Positions 693 through 50,061 of a DNA stretch of 64,000 nt are shown here, in pieces. The notes beneath the pieces are model-generated. The model was not told the DNA's origin. It saw only the letters and a program-made list of their open reading frames with translations, and ran no database searches. The DNA comes from a virus: IMG/VR virus record IMGVR_UViG_3300043411_001114, positions 48,367 to 112,366 of that record; one strand, written 5' to 3'. Each line of letters begins with the position of its first letter. Within the stretch, counting starts at the first letter, position 1. The translations under genes were made by a program, and so were the position numbers.

Positions 693-3184
693 TGTCGTCA
701 TCAGCTTGGCCTCTCATGCCTCCGAAATCCACCGAGACCCGGCTGGAACATTTCGATGAACAGCTGTACACGGCCGATCCGACCACCCTGCTGTACAAGT
801 TCGTCGACGCCCTCTGTGGCGACGCCGGTGCGGGGAGCCTGAAGAAGGAGATATTCCTCCAACGTCTCTCTGGTGCCATGGACGGCATCTATGGCTCCGA
901 CTTGGATTACATCTTCGGCAACACCCGGGTGCTGTCCCGCGTCTCGTCGGAGGCGTACACCTACAACACCATGAGCCAGATGCTCACCTCCGACCAGTGG
1001 GACGAGGTGATGGCCAAGGATGCCTTATACCGCAACCGCATCCGGGAGTTCTTCATCGCCGCCGCCAAGGGCGGCACCGCCGAGGGAATCCGGCAGCTGG
1101 TGCATGCCGCCATCTCCTGCGACTGCCAGGTGCTGGAGAACTGGAGATATATTGATTGTGCAGATGAAGAGACAGAAATCCTTACTCGTTCAGGATACAA
1201 GCGTTATTCTGAGCTAAAAGAAGGTGAGGAGGTGCTTACACTGAACATATCTTCCGGGTTAGCGGAGTGGCAGGCCACCACCAAGATCAACGTCTTTCCC
1301 GTAATTGATCATGAAATGCTTTCTGTAGAGATGGGCGGCAGACACTCCTCCTTAACCACCATGAATCATCGCTGGCCTGTGAGCAGTAGGATTAAAAACA
1401 CCGAAGGAATCCGTGGGTATTCAGACATTCGCATTCGTGCATCCGCCGAAATAACAACCGAAGACAGATTTATTCGAGCCGCGCCAGCAATAAAATTAAC
1501 CGATTTCGCTAAATTTTCTGACTCTCTTGTCGAACTAGTCGCTTGGTTCGTGACTGAAGGTCATGTTCATGCCCAATCATCAGTTGTCACCATCGTGCAG
1601 TCCCACGCAGTTAATCCCACCAAAGTGGACAATATCAGGGCAGCTCTGACCACACTCATCGGAACTTCTGTCAAGAATTTTGATCGCACCGGGGCAAGAA
1701 AAGACCAAAGCCCTGCTTGGCGAGAATGGGTAAGTTGCTCTAAACCGGACATTACTGTATTTCGGCTCAATTCGGCTGCCGGGCGACTGTTGATCGCCCA
1801 GGCTCCTGAAAAAATAGCGTCGATGGATTTCATTAATTCATTGACACGATCCCAGCTTCAGCTTTTCCTAGACACCTGCATCGCCGCTGATGGACATGTT
1901 CGAGGAGATGGTTACCGATCTTTCATTCAAAAATCAATGGAGAGAACCGTTCCGATTCAGATTGCGGCGACTCTGCTTGGAATACCCACCTCCATCCAGA
2001 AGACGCAAGGAGTGTGCCACGTTTTAAGCCTTTGTGAGAGGCAGAAGTTCGTTCAACCTCTCGGACAAGGGCGGAAAAACGCAAAAATTGTCCGATACAC
2101 AGGAACCGTATGGTGCCCCACAACCCCTAACGGAACTTGGTTTGCTCGACGTCGGGGCACCACTTACTTCACAGGCAATTCCTTCGGTCTGGCCGGGGAT
2201 GTCGGGCGGGCCGGGGAGGGTGGGTCCTTCTCGGCGGTTGATCTCGCTACTGGACACGAGGTGATCCGCAAGACCCGCAACCAGGCCGAGTCCTACGCCG
2301 ACACCAGCGGCCTGGATGACGGGCCACACAATATCCGGGCTAACCAGGCCCGATCCGAAATCACCATCGTCCCCTACAAGACCGACCTTCACCCCCGGGA
2401 GACCCGGGTGCTGCGGGATATGCTTGACCGGATCACCCCGCAGGATACGGTGGTCACCATCAGCCCCGAGGGACTCAGCGTCAGTTCTCCCGTCACGGTA
2501 CGGGCGATCACCTCCGACTCGACGTACTACCAGGTCGAGAAGATGGTCACCGGCACCCCGGTATTGGACGAGCTTCCGCCGCCGGAGATGCTGGCGATCG
2601 ACCTCGATCCCACCGCGAACTGGCTCAACCCCCGAACCCCGGAACTGGCCCCCTACGCGCAGTTCAACATCACCCAGGAGTTCGGTTACTACTACCTGGT
2701 TTCGGGCGGTCGGCGGTCACCGATCGACGAGGTCACCTACGGGGTTCTGGAGGAGAACGACAAGGTCCGTCTGGAGGCGGCCTTCGAGTGGTACGAGCAG
2801 AACGAGCAGTTCGGGCCGTGGACCGAGTACGAGAAGGCCGACAGCCCCGACAACTACCCTGGTGGCAAGTTCGGGCTGACTCCCAACAGCCTCCCGGCCC
2901 GCAACCCAGACCGGAGTCCGTACCAGTTCCAGTACGAGTCGCAGTCGGCCTACATCACCCAGAAAAAACAGGAGGTGCTGGCGCTCGGCGGTAACGCCAA
3001 CGACACCAGATACCAGCTTCCGATACAGAAGTCGACGACGGCCAAGCGTGTCTACACACCCGACCTGGCCATCGCCTTCACGGCACCAGTTCGAGACTCG
3101 ACGGTAACCAGCAGTTGGACGTCTCGCAAGCCTCGCTACGTCAGCAGCGAGTTACGCAACTCATCGTCATTCATCCGGTCGTGA
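692..3184 (+). CDS. Baseplate/tail structural protein containing an intein
   Basis: 830-aa ORF after the baseplate J-like gene. The N-terminal 'YRNRIREFF...KGGTAEGIRQLV' resembles baseplate wedge/P2 gpI-type proteins. It contains an internal low-GC intein. Confidence 0.65.
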   Translation: MSSSAWPLMPPKSTETRLEHFDEQLYTADPTTLLYKFVDALCGDAGAGSLKKEIFLQRLSGAMDGIYGSDLDYIFGNTRVLSRVSSEAYTYNTMSQMLTSDQWDEVMAKDALYRNRIREFFIAAAKGGTAEGIRQLVHAAISCDCQVLENWRYIDCADEETEILTRSGYKRYSELKEGEEVLTLNISSGLAEWQATTKINVFPVIDHEMLSVEMGGRHSSLTTMNHRWPVSSRIKNTEGIRGYSDIRIRASAEITTEDRFIRAAPAIKLTDFAKFSDSLVELVAWFVTEGHVHAQSSVVTIVQSHAVNPTKVDNIRAALTTLIGTSVKNFDRTGARKDQSPAWREWVSCSKPDITVFRLNSAAGRLLIAQAPEKIASMDFINSLTRSQLQLFLDTCIAADGHVRGDGYRSFIQKSMERTVPIQIAATLLGIPTSIQKTQGVCHVLSLCERQKFVQPLGQGRKNAKIVRYTGTVWCPTTPNGTWFARRRGTTYFTGNSFGLAGDVGRAGEGGSFSAVDLATGHEVIRKTRNQAESYADTSGLDDGPHNIRANQARSEITIVPYKTDLHPRETRVLRDMLDRITPQDTVVTISPEGLSVSSPVTVRAITSDSTYYQVEKMVTGTPVLDELPPPEMLAIDLDPTANWLNPRTPELAPYAQFNITQEFGYYYLVSGGRRSPIDEVTYGVLEENDKVRLEAAFEWYEQNEQFGPWTEYEKADSPDNYPGGKFGLTPNSLPARNPDRSPYQFQYESQSAYITQKKQEVLALGGNANDTRYQLPIQKSTTAKRVYTPDLAIAFTAPVRDSTVTSSWTSRKPRYVSSELRNSSSFIRS
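1157..2179 (+). mobile_element. Intein (341 aa) with LAGLIDADG-type homing endonuclease
   Basis: Begins CADEETEILT (block A), has TMNHRW (block B) and VWCPTT (block F), and ends YFTGN followed by +1 Ser. LAGLIDADG-like helices are LVAWFVTEG and LDTCIAADG. GC drops sharply. Confidence 0.9.
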
Positions 3185-44605: not shown

Positions 44606-45778
44606 GTGGTTCGGGTGACGCAACGGTTCTGGCCTCTCGCTGCGGGCCGCATCATCACCAGCCCTTACGGCCCCCGCGACGGCGGCTATCACTACGGCAC
44701 CGATTTCGGGTTCCCGGGCGGCTCCGCCGGGAAGCCGGTGTTTGCCATCGACTCGGGAATCGTCGTGTACAGCGGTGCCGCCCAAGGCTACGGCGGCCCC
44801 GACCCGGCCGGGTGGATCGTCATCAAGTCCGACTCCGGGGTCTGGGAGTACGGACACATCGTGCGGGAGCCTCACATCCGCCCGGGGGTGATGGTCGACG
44901 CCGGGACGAAGATCGCCACCATCAACCCCAACAGTGCCACCAACGGCGGTACCGCACCGCACCTGCACCTGTCCTGGATGCCGGGAAGGTATGACCCCAA
45001 CCAGAAGAAGGACCCGATCCCGGTTCTGCGTGACGCCGCCGAACCCGGGCCGATCAAGGAGAAGAACGTGGGCTGGAGTGGAGACCCCGTCTGGCTGGCT
45101 GACGTCCTGAAGAACTGGAAGAAGGGTTCTCGTCTCAAAACCGTCGAGATGCCCGACTGGAACCAGTACGGGCATGGCGACTTCGGGCAGATCTGGGGGG
45201 TGATGGTCCACCACACCGGCAACGCCAACGCCGACGCGATGTCGATCCGCAATGGCCGCCCCGACCTCGCCGGTCCGCTCTCCAACCTGCACATCGCCCA
45301 GGACGGGACGGTCACTGTGGTCGCGGCCGGGGTCTGCTGGCACGCCGGGTACGGCTCCTATCCGGGCATCCCCACCAACGGCGGCAATCAGGTTCTGATC
45401 GGCATCGAGTGTGCCTGGCCCCGCGACACCTCCATCACCCCGGCCACTCAGACCCGGGAACGGTGGCCCGACCCGCAGATCATCGCCATGCGTGACACGG
45501 TGGCCGCCATCCTCGACCGTCTCGGATATGGCCCCGACCGGGTGATTGCTCACAAGGAGTACGCCGGTCGCTCCCAGGGAAAATGGGACCCCGGCAACCT
45601 GGACATGAACTGGTTCCGCTCCGAGGTCGGCCTGGCCCAGCGTGGTCAGTTCATCCCCAAGCCGACACCCGTCCCCACACCGCCGGACACTTCCAAGGTC
45701 TATCCGCGCGACTACACCGACCGCGAGCTTCTCGAAGACATCTGGAAGACCCTGCAACCCCTGAAAGGCAAGTCATGA
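44606..45778 (+). CDS. Lysin A (M23 peptidase plus amidase-2)
   Basis: ITSPYGPR..HYGTDF, YGH and PHLH (M23); VMVHHTG, WHAG, IGIE, AHKE and KWDPG (amidase). Confidence 0.9.
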   Translation: MVRVTQRFWPLAAGRIITSPYGPRDGGYHYGTDFGFPGGSAGKPVFAIDSGIVVYSGAAQGYGGPDPAGWIVIKSDSGVWEYGHIVREPHIRPGVMVDAGTKIATINPNSATNGGTAPHLHLSWMPGRYDPNQKKDPIPVLRDAAEPGPIKEKNVGWSGDPVWLADVLKNWKKGSRLKTVEMPDWNQYGHGDFGQIWGVMVHHTGNANADAMSIRNGRPDLAGPLSNLHIAQDGTVTVVAAGVCWHAGYGSYPGIPTNGGNQVLIGIECAWPRDTSITPATQTRERWPDPQIIAMRDTVAAILDRLGYGPDRVIAHKEYAGRSQGKWDPGNLDMNWFRSEVGLAQRGQFIPKPTPVPTPPDTSKVYPRDYTDRELLEDIWKTLQPLKGKS

Positions 45779-46170
45779 TCTCCCTCCTGAAGCTCGACCC
45801 CCAGGTTCGGCAGTGGCTCTATGCGGTCGCCGCCTTCGCCTCGGCCCTCGTCCCGCTGCTGGTGACCTACAACGTCATCAGCGCCGAGTCCTCCAACTCC
45901 TGGCTGCAGTTGATCGGGATTCTCGGTGGTGTGGGTGCCGCCGGTGCCACCACCGCTGCGGTGGTCACCTCCAAGCAGCGCAAGGAGGGCACCCTGGACT
46001 TCACCGGTTCGGCCGACGAGCAGGCCGTCCAGGCTATCGAGTACACCGCCCACGCCGCCTCGGAGGGGGTGGCCCGGCTGCAGAAGATCATCCAGGCCGC
46101 CTCTTCCGCCGTGCCGCCCAACCCGGTGTCCCCCAACAGCGACCCGTCCAGCGCCAACTATCAGCCCTGA
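45775..46170 (+). CDS. Holin
   Basis: Directly after lysin A; RQWLY..., two TM segments. Confidence 0.75.
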   Translation: MISLLKLDPQVRQWLYAVAAFASALVPLLVTYNVISAESSNSWLQLIGILGGVGAAGATTAAVVTSKQRKEGTLDFTGSADEQAVQAIEYTAHAASEGVARLQKIIQAASSAVPPNPVSPNSDPSSANYQP

Positions 46171-46179
46171 GGATCATCT

Positions 46180-46830
46180 ATGTACATCGGCGGTCAGTGG
46201 GTAGGTCTCGGCCTGGGTGACAGCAGCCCCGAGGTGCGGGAACTCAAGCGCTTCATGAGGCGCAAGTTCTCCTACGCCAAGAACCTCGACGACACCACGC
46301 TCTACGACCAGGCGATGGTGACCGCTGTCGCCGACATGCAGGATGATGACGTTGTGGAAGAGTGGCGTTCTGTTTCGGGATATCCCGACTATGAGGTGTC
46401 AGATCAGGGACGAGTGCGGTCGTTTCGGAGAAACCGGCAGGGACAAGTGTTGCGCGTAAATCGCATCACTAACGGATACCTTCAGGTGAATCTGTACATA
46501 GGATCGGGAAAGGGGTCTCGCAAGCTGGTGCATCGGTTGGTTCTGGAGGCGTTTGTGGGACCGAAACCGTCTGGCCATGAGGCCTGTCATAACGACGGGG
46601 ATCAGACAAACAATCGACTCACCAACCTGCGTTGGGATACTCCTAAAAACAATGCTCGTGATGTGAAATTGCACGGTCGTCAATTTCAGGAAAACAAGAC
46701 TGAGTGCCCCCGGGGTCACAGCTATTCGGGAGACAACATCTACCACCGTCCTGGCGGCGGCCGGGGGTGCAAAGCGTGCCGCGCCGAAGCGACACGAAGG
46801 AGCAGGGCTAGAAGGTCATCATGCGTATAG
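46180..46830 (+). CDS. Fusion of a lysin B N-terminal fragment (54 aa) to a NUMOD4-HNH endonuclease
   Basis: aa 1-54 are paralogous to the downstream LysB N-terminus, followed by EEWRSV.GY.DYEVSDQGRVRS (NUMOD4), VHRLV..AF, CHNDG...N...NLRW and CPRGH...CKAC. Confidence 0.85.
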   Translation: MYIGGQWVGLGLGDSSPEVRELKRFMRRKFSYAKNLDDTTLYDQAMVTAVADMQDDDVVEEWRSVSGYPDYEVSDQGRVRSFRRNRQGQVLRVNRITNGYLQVNLYIGSGKGSRKLVHRLVLEAFVGPKPSGHEACHNDGDQTNNRLTNLRWDTPKNNARDVKLHGRQFQENKTECPRGHSYSGDNIYHRPGGGRGCKACRAEATRRSRARRSSCV

Positions 46831-47855
46831 GTGGACAGTACGTTGGCATAGGTCTTGGGGATTCCAGCGAAGAAGTCGGCAAGATTCGTGATTTTGGAAG
46901 ACGAAAGTTTTCGTACTGGAAGGACCTTCCTGACGCGCGAAACGCACAGGGGCTTCCGTTGTATGACGAGGCGATGGCCGCCGCTGTAGCCGAGACTCAG
47001 GCCCGCTACAACACCGGTTTCGGTCAGTTGGCGACCGGCAAGTATGTCCCGGGCATCGTCAACTACGAGACCAAGGTCGTGATGGGCTTCATTCCCCGAC
47101 CGAAGCGTCCCGACCAGCGCCCGATGCTGTTCAGCGTCTGCGGCACCGGGGTCCCGTGGTGGGTCGGCCCGGACGCCGACACCGCCCGCGCGGTCGAGGA
47201 CAAGTACCGCTGGCAGCCGATCGGCTACCCGGCCACCGCCGTCCCGATGGGCAAATCCATCCAGGCCGGGAAGGACGAACTGGAGAACCAGTTCCACATC
47301 CACCGCGAGCAGATCATCGCCTACGGTGCCGCGCTCCTAGGCTACAGCCAGGGCGCGATCGTCGTCTCCGAGTTGTTCGAGGAGCAGATTCGTCCGATCT
47401 CAGGCCGTCTTCGGTGGGCCTACCTTCACCTCACCAAGGCCTGCACCTGGGGCAATCCGAGCCGCGAGAAGGGCAAGGTCTGGCCCGACGCCGGTGGGCC
47501 GCCCGCCTCACCGCACACCCGGGGTGTCGTCGACAATCGCATGATCGACACCCCCGACTGGTGGCGTAACTACGCCCATAAGGGCGATCTGTACACCGAC
47601 TGTCCGGACGATGAGTCGGGCGAGAACCGGACCGCGATCTGGAAGCTGATCCGTAACGGAGACGCCTTCCGAGGCCCCGACAGCCTGCTGCGCCAGGTGC
47701 TGGAGTTGACCGGCACCGTCCGCGACGCCCACCAGATCAGCGAGACGACCGGGATGGTGAAGGCGATGATGGATGCCCTGATCTTCTTCGGCAAACAAAC
47801 TCGCCCTCATGTGAACTATTCGACCTCCGAGGCGATTGCGTACCTGAGGTCATGA
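46821..47855 (+). CDS. Lysin B (cutinase-like mycolylarabinogalactan esterase)
   Basis: N-terminal peptidoglycan-binding-like region; V.GTG, WQPIGYPA, GYSQGA, WGNP, GDLY and a C-terminal H..Y. Confidence 0.88.
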   Translation: MRIGGQYVGIGLGDSSEEVGKIRDFGRRKFSYWKDLPDARNAQGLPLYDEAMAAAVAETQARYNTGFGQLATGKYVPGIVNYETKVVMGFIPRPKRPDQRPMLFSVCGTGVPWWVGPDADTARAVEDKYRWQPIGYPATAVPMGKSIQAGKDELENQFHIHREQIIAYGAALLGYSQGAIVVSELFEEQIRPISGRLRWAYLHLTKACTWGNPSREKGKVWPDAGGPPASPHTRGVVDNRMIDTPDWWRNYAHKGDLYTDCPDDESGENRTAIWKLIRNGDAFRGPDSLLRQVLELTGTVRDAHQISETTGMVKAMMDALIFFGKQTRPHVNYSTSEAIAYLRS

Positions 47856-47880
47856 CCCGCCACGCTATACGCTGGGTGTC

Positions 47881-50061
47881 ATGACCAAAACCGTATTGGT
47901 TAACAACTTCGATCCCATCGGTCAGTTCAAGTCTGGAATCTCCTCCGGCACGCCCTGGGATTCGATTGTTGATTTCGCCACCAGCAAATCATTCTGCGGT
48001 AAGAGGCTCTATCCCCGGCAGATGACCCTGCTCAAGCTGATCTACCTCGAAACCGAGTCGATGACCGACTACGACATGGAGGTCATCGGTCAGTGGGCCG
48101 AGGGGTTCAAGAACGTCAATCACCCGACCGGTGTCCAGCCCGACATCTGGGACCGGATCGACTACCTCAAGGCCAACGGCTTCACCCATTTCCCGCACGT
48201 CCAGATGGTGATGGGCCGCCGCGCCTCCAAAGGCATCATCGGCAGTATTCTGGCCACCGAACGGATCGCCTGGCTCTACTCGCTCGGTTCCTGGCAGCAG
48301 CATTTCAACCAGGTTCCCGGTCAGGTCGCCGAGATCACCGTCGTCGCCAACAGCCTGACCCAGGCCGTGACCCGGCAGTTTCGGGATATTCGCAACGCCG
48401 TGTTCGCCTGCGAGTATCTGAGGCCACACATAGTCGGCGATAAACAAACCGAATTTTATATCCGCACCCCGGGCGATGAGCAGACCATTATCGAGAACAA
48501 CCTGGCCGGAATCACCTCCGACCGGGAGATCGCCACCATCTACTGCAAGGCCTCCAGTTCGGTCTCCACCAGCGGTCGTGGCGGCACAGGGCTTTTCAAC
48601 GCCTACGACGAGTTTGCCCACATGCTGGCCGGTACCGGCTCCACCAAGACCGGCGAGGAAATCTACGACGCCTTCCAGCCCTCGCTCGACCAGTTCGGTC
48701 ATCACGCCATGACCTACTGTGCCTCTTCGCCCTTCTCGAAAATCGGCAAATTTTATGATCTGTACCAGCAGGGCCGGATCACCACGGATTCCTACAACCT
48801 GCGCGAGGGGAAGCTGAAGACCACCAGCTTCATTGAGGAGGCCCAGTCCCAGGACATCGACCTCGACCCCGACGAGATCAGCGCCGCCGTCGCCGAGCCG
48901 ACCTTCCTGGTCGTCCAGTTGCCCAGCTGGGACACCTACCGCGACTGGGAGCGGTCGCGTGAGATTCCGATACTTCCCGGCCGCACCCGAACCTTCCCCC
49001 GCTGGAACTCCCCGGTGCAGTACGAGCCGAAAGAGGACGGCACCCCTGACGAGCGGGTGCAGTACCGCCGGATGCGTCGCAACCCCGACAAGTTCAAGGT
49101 CGAGCGGGGCGGCCAGTTCGCCACTGTTCAGGACGCCTACCTCAATGAGGTGATGGTCGACCGGATGTTCGAGCCGCCCGACTGGCGTCCTCCGCTGGAA
49201 ATCCAGCATCAGGGCAAGCTGTCGCTGTCCTATCGTGCCCACGCCGACCCGTCACGCACCAACGCGAATTTCGGATTCTGCATCGCCCACCTCGAACAGG
49301 CACCGCCCGACGAGCACGGCATCTCCTGGCCGCACGTCATCATCGACGTCCTGCACGTCTGGAAGCCCGAGGACTTCAAAGACCACACCATCGACTATGT
49401 CCAGGTCGGTGAGGAACTCGACGACTACCTGCGCCGCTTCCCCTCGACCACCAAGATGACCTACGACCAGTTCAACTCGGCGGGCCTGATCGCCCACCAG
49501 AAGCGGGCCTTCCCCAATATCCGGGTTCTGGAGAAAACTTTCACCCTCAAGGAAAACCAGGATCGCTGCGAGCGCTTCAAGAGCGCCCTCAATCTCGGCT
49601 GGTTGCACGCGCCCCGAGACACCCTCGCCGATGAGGGACAGTCGCTGCTCGAACTGGAATTGAAGTTCCTTCAGGAGAAGAACGGCCGGGTAGACAAGCA
49701 GGACATCGGCCCGATCCAGACCAAAGACCTCGCCGACGCGGCGATGGTCGTGGTCACCGACCTCCTGCACGACAGCCTGGACAAGTGGTGGACCGCCATC
49801 AACCGCACCTCGGTCGGCTCGACCGACTCGGTAGGCCTGCGCTCCGGCCGCGAACTCGACAGGATCAGCGCCTACAGCGCCCCCGGTACGGGCGACCCGA
49901 TGCAGCGCTACTTGGCCGAGGAGGCCAACCGCTATGAGCGCAAGACGATCCGCGCCGAGCGGAACAGGACCGTGATCGGGGCCAACAAGCTGGAGCGCGC
50001 CCGCCGCAAGTCGGGTCATGTTCCGACCTATAGTAACTCTAGAACCAGAGGGTTCCGGTAG
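47881..50061 (+). CDS. Terminase large subunit
   Basis: LYPRQ, MGRRASKG (Walker A), YDEFAH (Walker B), SSP; RNase H-like HADPS...YDQFN...KDLADA. Confidence 0.85.
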   Translation: MTKTVLVNNFDPIGQFKSGISSGTPWDSIVDFATSKSFCGKRLYPRQMTLLKLIYLETESMTDYDMEVIGQWAEGFKNVNHPTGVQPDIWDRIDYLKANGFTHFPHVQMVMGRRASKGIIGSILATERIAWLYSLGSWQQHFNQVPGQVAEITVVANSLTQAVTRQFRDIRNAVFACEYLRPHIVGDKQTEFYIRTPGDEQTIIENNLAGITSDREIATIYCKASSSVSTSGRGGTGLFNAYDEFAHMLAGTGSTKTGEEIYDAFQPSLDQFGHHAMTYCASSPFSKIGKFYDLYQQGRITTDSYNLREGKLKTTSFIEEAQSQDIDLDPDEISAAVAEPTFLVVQLPSWDTYRDWERSREIPILPGRTRTFPRWNSPVQYEPKEDGTPDERVQYRRMRRNPDKFKVERGGQFATVQDAYLNEVMVDRMFEPPDWRPPLEIQHQGKLSLSYRAHADPSRTNANFGFCIAHLEQAPPDEHGISWPHVIIDVLHVWKPEDFKDHTIDYVQVGEELDDYLRRFPSTTKMTYDQFNSAGLIAHQKRAFPNIRVLEKTFTLKENQDRCERFKSALNLGWLHAPRDTLADEGQSLLELELKFLQEKNGRVDKQDIGPIQTKDLADAAMVVVTDLLHDSLDKWWTAINRTSVGSTDSVGLRSGRELDRISAYSAPGTGDPMQRYLAEEANRYERKTIRAERNRTVIGANKLERARRKSGHVPTYSNSRTRGFR

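Follow-up and report, generated by a model that had tools for sequence, protein, structure and literature searches.

A NUMOD4-HNH endonuclease gene and a foreign lysB 5' end at the lysB locus of a Bixzunavirus-like phage

How can a nuclease gene come to lie inside the lysis gene lysB and still leave a full-length LysB encoded, when no splicing element is there to remove it? This question is raised by a stretch of 64,000 nucleotides of viral DNA (positions 48,367–112,366 of the IMG/VR record IMGVR_UViG_3300043411_001114), the whole of which is herein called the window. In it, an open reading frame (ORF) at 46,180–46,830 begins with 54 codons of lysB and continues in frame as an HNH endonuclease, and a lysB gene with a different 5' end starts over its last codons, at position 46,821 (all the features described are on the plus strand). 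Our analysis, which followed up an earlier note made from the sequence alone, indicates that positions 46,342–47,000 are an imported cassette, composed of the endonuclease gene and a foreign lysB 5' end, and that the native lysB 5' end was displaced upstream. We hold with good confidence that a free-standing homing endonuclease with an obligatory co-conversion tract was installed here at a place where homology was absent on the left side, with the native 5' end becoming joined to the nuclease.

Two lysB starts around one nuclease gene

The fusion ORF encodes a protein of 216 amino acids (aa). Its first 54 codons (46,180–46,341; referred to as natN) match positions 4–56 of the PHROG 102 (LysB) profile, and are followed by a NUMOD4 DNA-binding motif at 46,357–46,497 (residues 60–106; PF07463, E 6e-13, 49.2 bits against a cut-off of 23.4) and by an HNH_3 catalytic domain of the I-HmuI-like type at 46,522–46,659 (residues 115–160; PF13392, E 2e-12, 47.1 bits against a cut-off of 24.8, profile positions 1–46 of 46). 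The nuclease ORF is intact, with both Pfam profiles matched over their full length, and the nuclease belongs to the NUMOD4/HNH_3 (I-HmuI-like) HNH endonucleases. The nuclease also matches PHROG 1492, 'HNH endonuclease' (E 1e-64), and by phmmer the nuclease part is homologous to I-HmuI itself (PDB 1U3E; E 7e-12, residues 7–109 against 2–101). The stretch H-x-D-G...N-N...N-L-R-W is kept in the alignment with 1U3E, and its residues are invariant in the comparison with the nearest homologues of the nuclease, P0002 (69% identity) and P0003 (63–64%), both of which are free-standing proteins of 162 aa that start 3–5 codons before a conserved EEW. The identical 216-aa fusion protein is recorded as a cluster with 9 member sequences, and no second copy of the nuclease was found in the 112-kb record.

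The second lysB start is provided with its own signals. A Shine-Dalgarno sequence, AGAAGG, lies within the 3' end of the nuclease gene (46,810–46,815), 5 nt before the ATG at 46,821, and the start of lysB overlaps the stop of the nuclease by 10 nt (ATGCGTATAG). The first 60 codons from this ATG (46,821–47,000; referred to as newN) are homologous to natN, with 34 of 60 positions identical (57%), one 6-aa indel, and an E of 3e-21 for the pair. Both copies end in CAG followed by G (46,339–46,341 and then 46,342 in the first; 46,998–47,000 and then 47,001 in the second). By homology, the downstream ORF (46,821–47,855) is a complete LysB of 344 aa, a chimeric protein of the mycolylarabinogalactan esterase type related to D29 gp12: it matches PHROG 102 over residues 1–339 (E 2e-97) and the LysB of D29 (PDB 3HC7) over residues 100–341 (E 1.8e-39), with the GYSQGA serine motif aligned. 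A peptidoglycan-binding-domain (PGBD)-like N-domain runs to about residue 85–99, and the esterase domain begins near residue 100.

The GC content of third codon positions (GC3) is 0.889 in natN, 0.566 in the HNH part, 0.533 in newN, and 0.863 in the remainder of lysB, with values of 0.84–0.90 in the neighbouring genes. When the change-point of third-position GC was located by maximum likelihood, it fell exactly after codon 54 in the fusion ORF, and gave a broad set of near-equal optima at codons 30–59 in lysB. GC3, change-point, and the density of single-nucleotide polymorphisms (SNPs; see below) delimit the cassette at 46,342–47,000, the left edge being exact and the right edge lying between 46,995 and 47,023. 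What the earlier note had described, namely a 54-aa lysB-like start that switches in frame to a NUMOD4-HNH nuclease and, downstream, a diverged lysB start of lower GC, with the two copies running to an equivalent Gln codon, was found to be correct at every coordinate.

Other kinds of nuclease-bearing element were considered and discarded. A group I intron found no match in Rfam, in which a search for introns over 45,700–47,500 returned nothing at E ≤ 1. An intein does not fit either: translation of the nuclease is terminated by a stop codon, and the frame of lysB, which is a different one, is opened by a separate ATG preceded by its own Shine-Dalgarno sequence. As for the terminase-associated HNH proteins of the HK97 gp74 type, the domains found here are NUMOD4 and HNH_3, not PF01844, and the gene is absent from all the relatives that have the same terminase.

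Origin of the two lysB 5' ends

In a megablast comparison with 50,697 phage records the region gave no match, and the closest relatives came from IMG/VR. In these (L008–L012), the terminase is 77–83% and LysB residues 61–344 are 72–74% identical to the window; lysA is 70–71% identical in L009–L012, as in the wider set L009–L014, and was not matched in L008. The HNH gene is absent between holin and lysB in L008–L014 and in the phages Tonenili and Roots515, and is present in the window and in L034, a 98%-identical contig of another metagenome that has the same arrangement (L007/L015/L034). Where a holin was recognised in the relatives (L008 and L012), lysB lies directly 3' of it, and Tonenili and Roots515 have the order holin-lysB-terL, without HNH and with a short (natN-type) LysB N-terminus. 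The LysB N-termini of the element-free relatives are 68–72% identical to natN and 47–53% identical to newN, and in a maximum-likelihood tree the LysB residues 61–344 of the window group with those of L008, L009, and L012 (support 100/96). Because the relatives, the GC3 values, and the identities agree, natN is the lysB start of the phage itself and newN is the imported one. The upstream displacement of the native 5' end, as proposed in the earlier note, is thus upheld by the 68–72% identity of natN to the element-free relatives. The same note had predicted that an allele lacking the element would read VADMQ-ARY, and L012 reads ...VTAVADMQ/ARYNTG... (the slash marks the junction); the reading in L008 is ...VADMQ/SRYN....

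The imported start leads to a different group of phages. When newN was searched by tblastn in the 50,697 phage records, the top 22 rows all belonged to cluster F phages, and precisely to those in which an HNH gene directly adjoins lysB; the phages in these rows include KingMidas, Leozinho, Inventum, Sassafras, Chevrolet, ArcusAngelus, Galactic, LunaBlu, MinionDave, Ramsey, Eish, Flathead, Mandlovu, Hlubikazi, and Strokeseat. Cluster O phages came next, at about 70%. At the amino acid level, newN is 78–83% identical to the LysB starts of the HNH-carrying cluster F phages (Ramsey/KingMidas), with which it has in common the 6-aa insertion and the run EEVGKIRDFGRRKFSYW, while residues 61–344 of the window LysB are only 56–57% identical to those of Ramsey and KingMidas. 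In a maximum-likelihood tree, newN and the cluster F alleles with HNH form a clade (support 96/91). The presence of the HNH gene is also polymorphic within cluster F: the phages without it, in which lysB directly follows lysA, have a natN-like start type, and in the tree of LysB residues 61–344 the phages with and without HNH are intermixed, e.g., Eish with Boomer (96/90). All the cluster F versions have the same NUMOD4 plus HNH_3 architecture. The earlier note had regarded the downstream copy as a recoded version of the host's own sequence; this part of it has to be abandoned, since newN is a foreign allele and contains the 6-aa insertion.

A position next to lysB is also seen for the P0002 gene, which lies in the order lysA-HNH-lysB on two metagenome contigs, where its start directly adjoins the end of lysA and its last 10 nt overlap the beginning of lysB. 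The HNH gene of the cluster F phage Mozy likewise ends over the lysB start (...SCV and the stop codon), and the C-terminal sequence of P0003 implies that the same overlap would be found there. At the P0002 locus (L036), GC3 is low over only a short (~20 codon) lysB start, which speaks neither for nor against a 180-nt tract. Scans of IMG/VR with P0002 and P0003 returned distant HNH genes only.

The right-hand end of the imported tract was then compared between phages. Of the 183 alignment columns that lead up to the Gln codon, 57 are mismatched between Eish and Boomer, as against five of the following 420, and the divergence of Ramsey, MinionDave, and Mandlovu from the HNH-less type (Boomer) stops 4 nt before the Gln codon. 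In the window, donor-type residues reach ...AETQ (46,989–47,000), the type of the relatives takes over from ARYNTGFGQLATGKY onward, and the first SNP 3' of the cassette, in the comparison with L034, is at 47,024. The interval 46,995–47,023 is therefore the putative site of the homologous crossover on the right, and also the predicted neighbourhood of cleavage in empty alleles. As aligned, two very different phage backbones have one right-hand boundary within about 20 nt. This boundary is inside the PGBD-like N-domain and not at a domain border, and therefore selection for a clean domain swap fails to explain the coincidence.

Three observations on cluster F concern the same junction. First, the HNH genes of Ramsey (L001:2193–3491) and KingMidas (L002:2218–3518) are mosaic: identity between the two phages is 84% from the lysA end through the initial ~190 nt of HNH, is lost in the centre and the 3' part of HNH, which cannot be aligned, and returns at 93% from the lysB start. 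This pattern suggests that nucleases at one site have been exchanged for one another and that the lysB 5' tract has stayed in place. Second, Mozy has kept the native lysB start and eight codons right after lysA (L003:2851–2874), followed by an insert of 810 nt (L003:2874–3683) with a 229-aa HNH and a new TTG start for lysB, and from lysB nt 19 onward the sequence is again homologous to that of Boomer. On this reading of the alignment, Mozy has a second, smaller displaced native lysB 5' end, at an insertion point that differs from that of the window. Third, the record of Eish (L056, NC_051651) contains an intact HNH ORF of 215 aa at 1396–2043 which is unannotated, and the annotated LysB coding sequence (1706–3010) begins about 96 codons upstream of its likely true start at 1994 (as in Mandlovu) and crosses the HNH region in a different frame.

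Concerning the surroundings of the cassette, the order of the lysis region (lysA, holin, lysB, terminase) is that of Bixzunavirus, with the ORF at 46,180–46,830 as an extra gene between holin and lysB. The first gene is lysA (44,606–45,778), which encodes an endolysin with M23 peptidase and Amidase_2 domains (PF01551, PF01510). It is followed by the holin (45,775–46,170), which has weak Pfam holin matches and is recognisable by the homologous holin-lysB junction in L012/L008 and in Tonenili/Roots515. The large terminase (47,881–50,061), assigned by gene order and by its 67–68% identity to the terminases of cluster C mycobacteriophages (Bixzunavirus), is separated from lysB by a spacer of only 25 nt (47,856–47,880). 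At this place L009 (4014–4781), L010, and L011 have an extra ORF of 255 aa between lysB and terminase, with a GNAT acetyltransferase match (PF00583, residues 32–84) and, by eye, a C-terminal ParB/Srx-like DGHHR motif. This edge of lysB looks like another insertion hot spot.

Homing and its alternatives

The stretch was present in 20 public runs from 13 studies, mostly of wastewater and activated sludge, and contigs of four further public runs cover the arrangement, two of the four spanning it in one piece. Compared with L034, the window has 5 SNPs in the 659 nt of the cassette (0.76%) and 57 in the 2000 nt of the two 1-kb flanks, one on each side (2.85%; Fisher p 0.001). Not a single SNP was found at 46,713–47,023, and there are 15 in the following 311 nt (p 5e-5). 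Among the four runs compared, figures were drawn from the X4 contig only: between this contig of 26 kb and the window there are 16 differences in 45,500–46,299 (800 nt, 2%) and none in 46,300–47,023 (724 nt; p 4e-5), and the X4 assembly splits into variant contigs just past 47,023. Across metagenomes, variation in the cassette is about one quarter of that in the flanks. Because it has fewer SNPs, it appears to be younger than the flanks across strains, as predicted by homing or at least by recombinational spread. Together with the relatives, the grouping of newN, the GC3 step, and the shared boundary, this lower polymorphism supports the proposal of the earlier note that 46,342–47,000 is a mobile unit of nuclease and lysB 5' end which operates without splicing.

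The SNPs against L034 are distributed differently in the two parts of the fusion ORF. All five in natN are at third positions, and the peptide is 100% conserved; the five in HNH fall 1/2/2 by codon position. The pattern in natN may be either polymorphism from the time when natN was part of a working lysB or the result of selection on the fusion. Outside the cassette, dense clusters of SNPs against L034 are seen at 47,807–47,934 (lysB 3' end and terminase start) and at 48,088–48,303 (inside the terminase), with six consecutive ones at 48,088–48,093, and these clusters may be further patches of recombination between strains.

The events by which homing would have produced this locus can be set out as follows. 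The nuclease lineage would reside immediately 5' of lysB in mycobacteriophages, and its gene would travel with the first ~180 nt of the donor lysB. In an empty lysB, the cut is predicted about 160–185 nt into the gene, near the conserved ...ATGCAR/GCC... Gln codon. Because the cut would be distant from the nuclease gene, all the sequence between the two would necessarily be co-converted, and because the first ~180 nt of lysB would be this obligatory tract, the nuclease and the newN-type start would be found together, with the tract ending at one place. In cluster F, the unit would have been inserted between lysA and lysB by homologous recombination at both sides, as the comparison of Ramsey and Boomer suggests. 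The window phage would have had the holin instead of lysA at the left, with nothing to pair with. The right break end, near codon 54/55, would have invaded a donor lysB, with homologous recombination at about codon 60; synthesis would have moved leftward, copying newN and then the nuclease gene, and the product would have been joined illegitimately, in frame, to the unresected left end (native codons 1–54) by end joining. End joining by Ku/LigD occurs in mycobacteria and in several of their phages. Only the products with a whole nuclease gene could have spread on, which would explain an in-frame joint five codons before the EEW.

As a result, the nuclease would have acquired the native 5' end as an N-terminal tail, lysB would draw a new ribosome-binding site from the 3' end of the nuclease gene, and the foreign N-terminus of 60 codons would restore a full-length LysB, without intron or intein. 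Because both halves of the target flank it, the element could then spread among related strains by ordinary homing. The left half-site beside the new junction differs from the native one in 3 of 12 bases. Since the insertion splits the presumed recognition sequence, and since this half-site differs, it is plausible that the rebuilt allele resists cleavage. We infer the one-sided illegitimate join, the position of cleavage, the resistance of the new allele, and the choice of start codon for the nuclease.

On translation, a Shine-Dalgarno-like GAGGA of the native lysB can be read at 46,169–46,173, 6 nt 5' of the ATG at 46,180. Because this native GAGGA-N6-ATG (46,169–46,182) would drive ribosomes through natN, a LysB(1–54)-HNH protein is expected. 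The nuclease may also have an independent start at the in-frame GTG at 46,354–46,356, one codon before the conserved EEW. Use of the borrowed lysB start, as claimed in the earlier note, is thus plausible and not exclusive, since this GTG, with AGGA at 46,340–46,343, could start the nuclease as well. A scan for consensus promoters and terminators found nothing in or around the cassette, and because there is no promoter- or terminator-like site within it, the cassette probably rides on the late lysis transcript.

A further step is more tentative, and we consider it somewhat less probable than its negation: the scar may have turned the nuclease into an intragenic homing element that needs no splicing. 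In that case, 46,342–47,000 would home as a unit into codon 54/55 of empty Bixzunavirus-like lysB genes, with natN and the remainder of lysB as the homology arms and with the nuclease made as a LysB(1–54) fusion from the start codon of the target.

Several points weigh against homing as the origin of the cassette. A newN-like start also occurs in cluster O phages, which lack the HNH gene, and by this comparison the newN allele type is not intrinsically element-borne. The window nuclease is only 42–46% identical to the cluster F nucleases, while newN is ~80% identical to their LysB starts, and therefore the actual donor would be unsampled and joint travel of the two parts would not always be necessary. 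The divergent tract of KingMidas appears to stop earlier, just after the 6-aa insertion; the cut site is placed from two recombination boundaries only; and all the HNH-carrying cluster F phages may share descent from one event. Ordinary recombination or a sweep could also lower polymorphism in the cassette. Lastly, no joint that skips the cassette, i.e., no element-free allele of the same species, was found among the contigs of the four runs, in which assembly drops rare variants.

Some of these points are shared by the best-surviving rival, which we nonetheless judge to be unlikely: ordinary mosaic recombination, in which a segment of a lysis region was spliced in without cleavage, with the HNH as a passive passenger or inactive. 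Mosaicism is pervasive in mycobacteriophage genomes (PMC3029335), the donor is unsampled, the identity of the nuclease to those of cluster F is low, and the distribution of the HNH SNPs over codon positions carries no sign of purifying selection. Such recombination does not account for an illegitimate left joint and a homologous right crossover at the same lysB coordinate, within about 8 codons, nor for the fact that this coordinate, inside the PGBD-like N-domain, is the boundary between HNH-carrying and HNH-less alleles in cluster F. The intact nuclease ORF with its full-length Pfam matches, and a cassette less diverged than its flanks, also speak against it.

It is quite improbable that the fusion is functional or domesticated, with the LysB(1–54) tail adding some new property to the nuclease or to the lysis cassette, and with natN being under selection. 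The third-position SNPs and fully conserved peptide of natN would be expected from it, as would a reading frame that is open and conserved in all the copies seen. The synonymous-only pattern, however, would arise just as well from homing of the cassette into strains whose divergence came first, at a time when natN still belonged to a working lysB; moreover, the 54 residues make up only about two thirds of the PGBD-like domain, and the closest homologues work as free-standing 162-aa proteins.

An internal tandem duplication of the lysB 5' end, with later divergence and a separate HNH insertion, would produce homologous segments with the same terminal codon; it is already contradicted, and we regard it as very improbable, because newN is 83% identical to cluster F and 57% to natN, has the 6-aa insertion of cluster F, and is low in GC3 like the nuclease and unlike the genome. 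Least credible of all is that natN is what remains of an independent peptidoglycan-binding-domain gene truncated by the HNH, for which the PGBD-like sequence pattern alone would speak and which is already contradicted by the match of natN to PHROG 102 and by a natN-type segment that is the lysB start after the holin in every relative, with no separate gene, or that the arrangement is an assembly chimera, given its recurrence in independent assemblies of many studies.

Comparison with known systems and significance

Homing by a free-standing nuclease has its best precedent in the intronless homing of phage T4, in which SegF, SegG, and MobE cut the nuclease-less allele away from their own gene and the intervening sequence is copied along (PMC2988022). 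The features in common with the window are a nuclease gene beside its target, a distant cut, co-conversion of the flank, sporadic presence, and localised exclusion of alleles. In T4, the element is intergenic, both joints are homologous, and no fragment of the target is left, whereas in the window one joint would be illegitimate and the native 5' end persists as an in-frame part of the nuclease ORF. Unlike those of T4, the unit in the window also appears to have crossed between unrelated phage backbones, from a donor allele of siphovirus type to a recipient of myovirus type.

A second parallel is found in fungal mitochondria, in which mORFs carry a foreign gene end in phase, as in atp6 of Allomyces macrogynus and in atp6, atp9, cox2, and nad3 of Glomus (PMC3630166). 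As in the window, an endonuclease ORF and a foreign gene end lie inside a gene, in phase and without splicing, and the displaced native end resembles that of close relatives while the inserted end clusters elsewhere. The polarity is mirrored: mORFs replace the 3'/C-terminal end, and the cassette of the window replaces the 5'/N-terminal end. In addition, the displaced piece would be translated onto the nuclease in the window and is silent downstream in the mORFs, whose nucleases are of the LAGLIDADG or GIY-YIG type, in an organelle, instead of HNH, in a phage. The element in the window thus works like an mORF, yet is outside those families.

The closest counterparts are the HNH genes between lysA and lysB in cluster F (Ramsey gp33, KingMidas gp32, MinionDave gp33, Mandlovu gp31, and Mozy gp32). 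These have the same architecture, abut or overlap the lysB start, are accompanied (except in Mozy) by a newN-type lysB 5' end, and have their right boundary at the Gln codon. They differ from the window in that the remnant of native lysB is none or, in Mozy, of eight codons, and is not fused. The genes are annotated in GenBank, and in a limited search of the literature no paper was found to describe them as homing cassettes that bring a lysB co-conversion tract. As to I-HmuI, the HNH nicking endonuclease encoded in an intron of the Bacillus phage SPO1, the homology extends over the N-terminal DNA-binding part and the HNH core; I-HmuI is in a group I intron, and the window nuclease has no intron and has a different, Cys/His-rich C-terminal part.

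If the proposed origin is correct, the locus is a natural record of a free-standing homing endonuclease entering a genome with homology at only one side of the cut, and it links the intronless homing of phages to the gene-end-replacing mORFs of fungi. It also provides a testable prediction of the cleavage site for the lysB-associated HNH nucleases of many cluster F mycobacteriophages. If the cassette does home as an intragenic element, it would be a phage counterpart, of mirrored polarity, of the fungal mORFs, and would represent a third route, beside introns and inteins, by which a nuclease gene can reside inside an essential coding sequence. For the phages themselves, such cassettes would move segments of lysis genes between unrelated actinophage backbones, and LysB in phage collections can be a chimera whose N-terminus was brought in by an element; some records, such as that of Eish, have come to be mis-annotated in this way.

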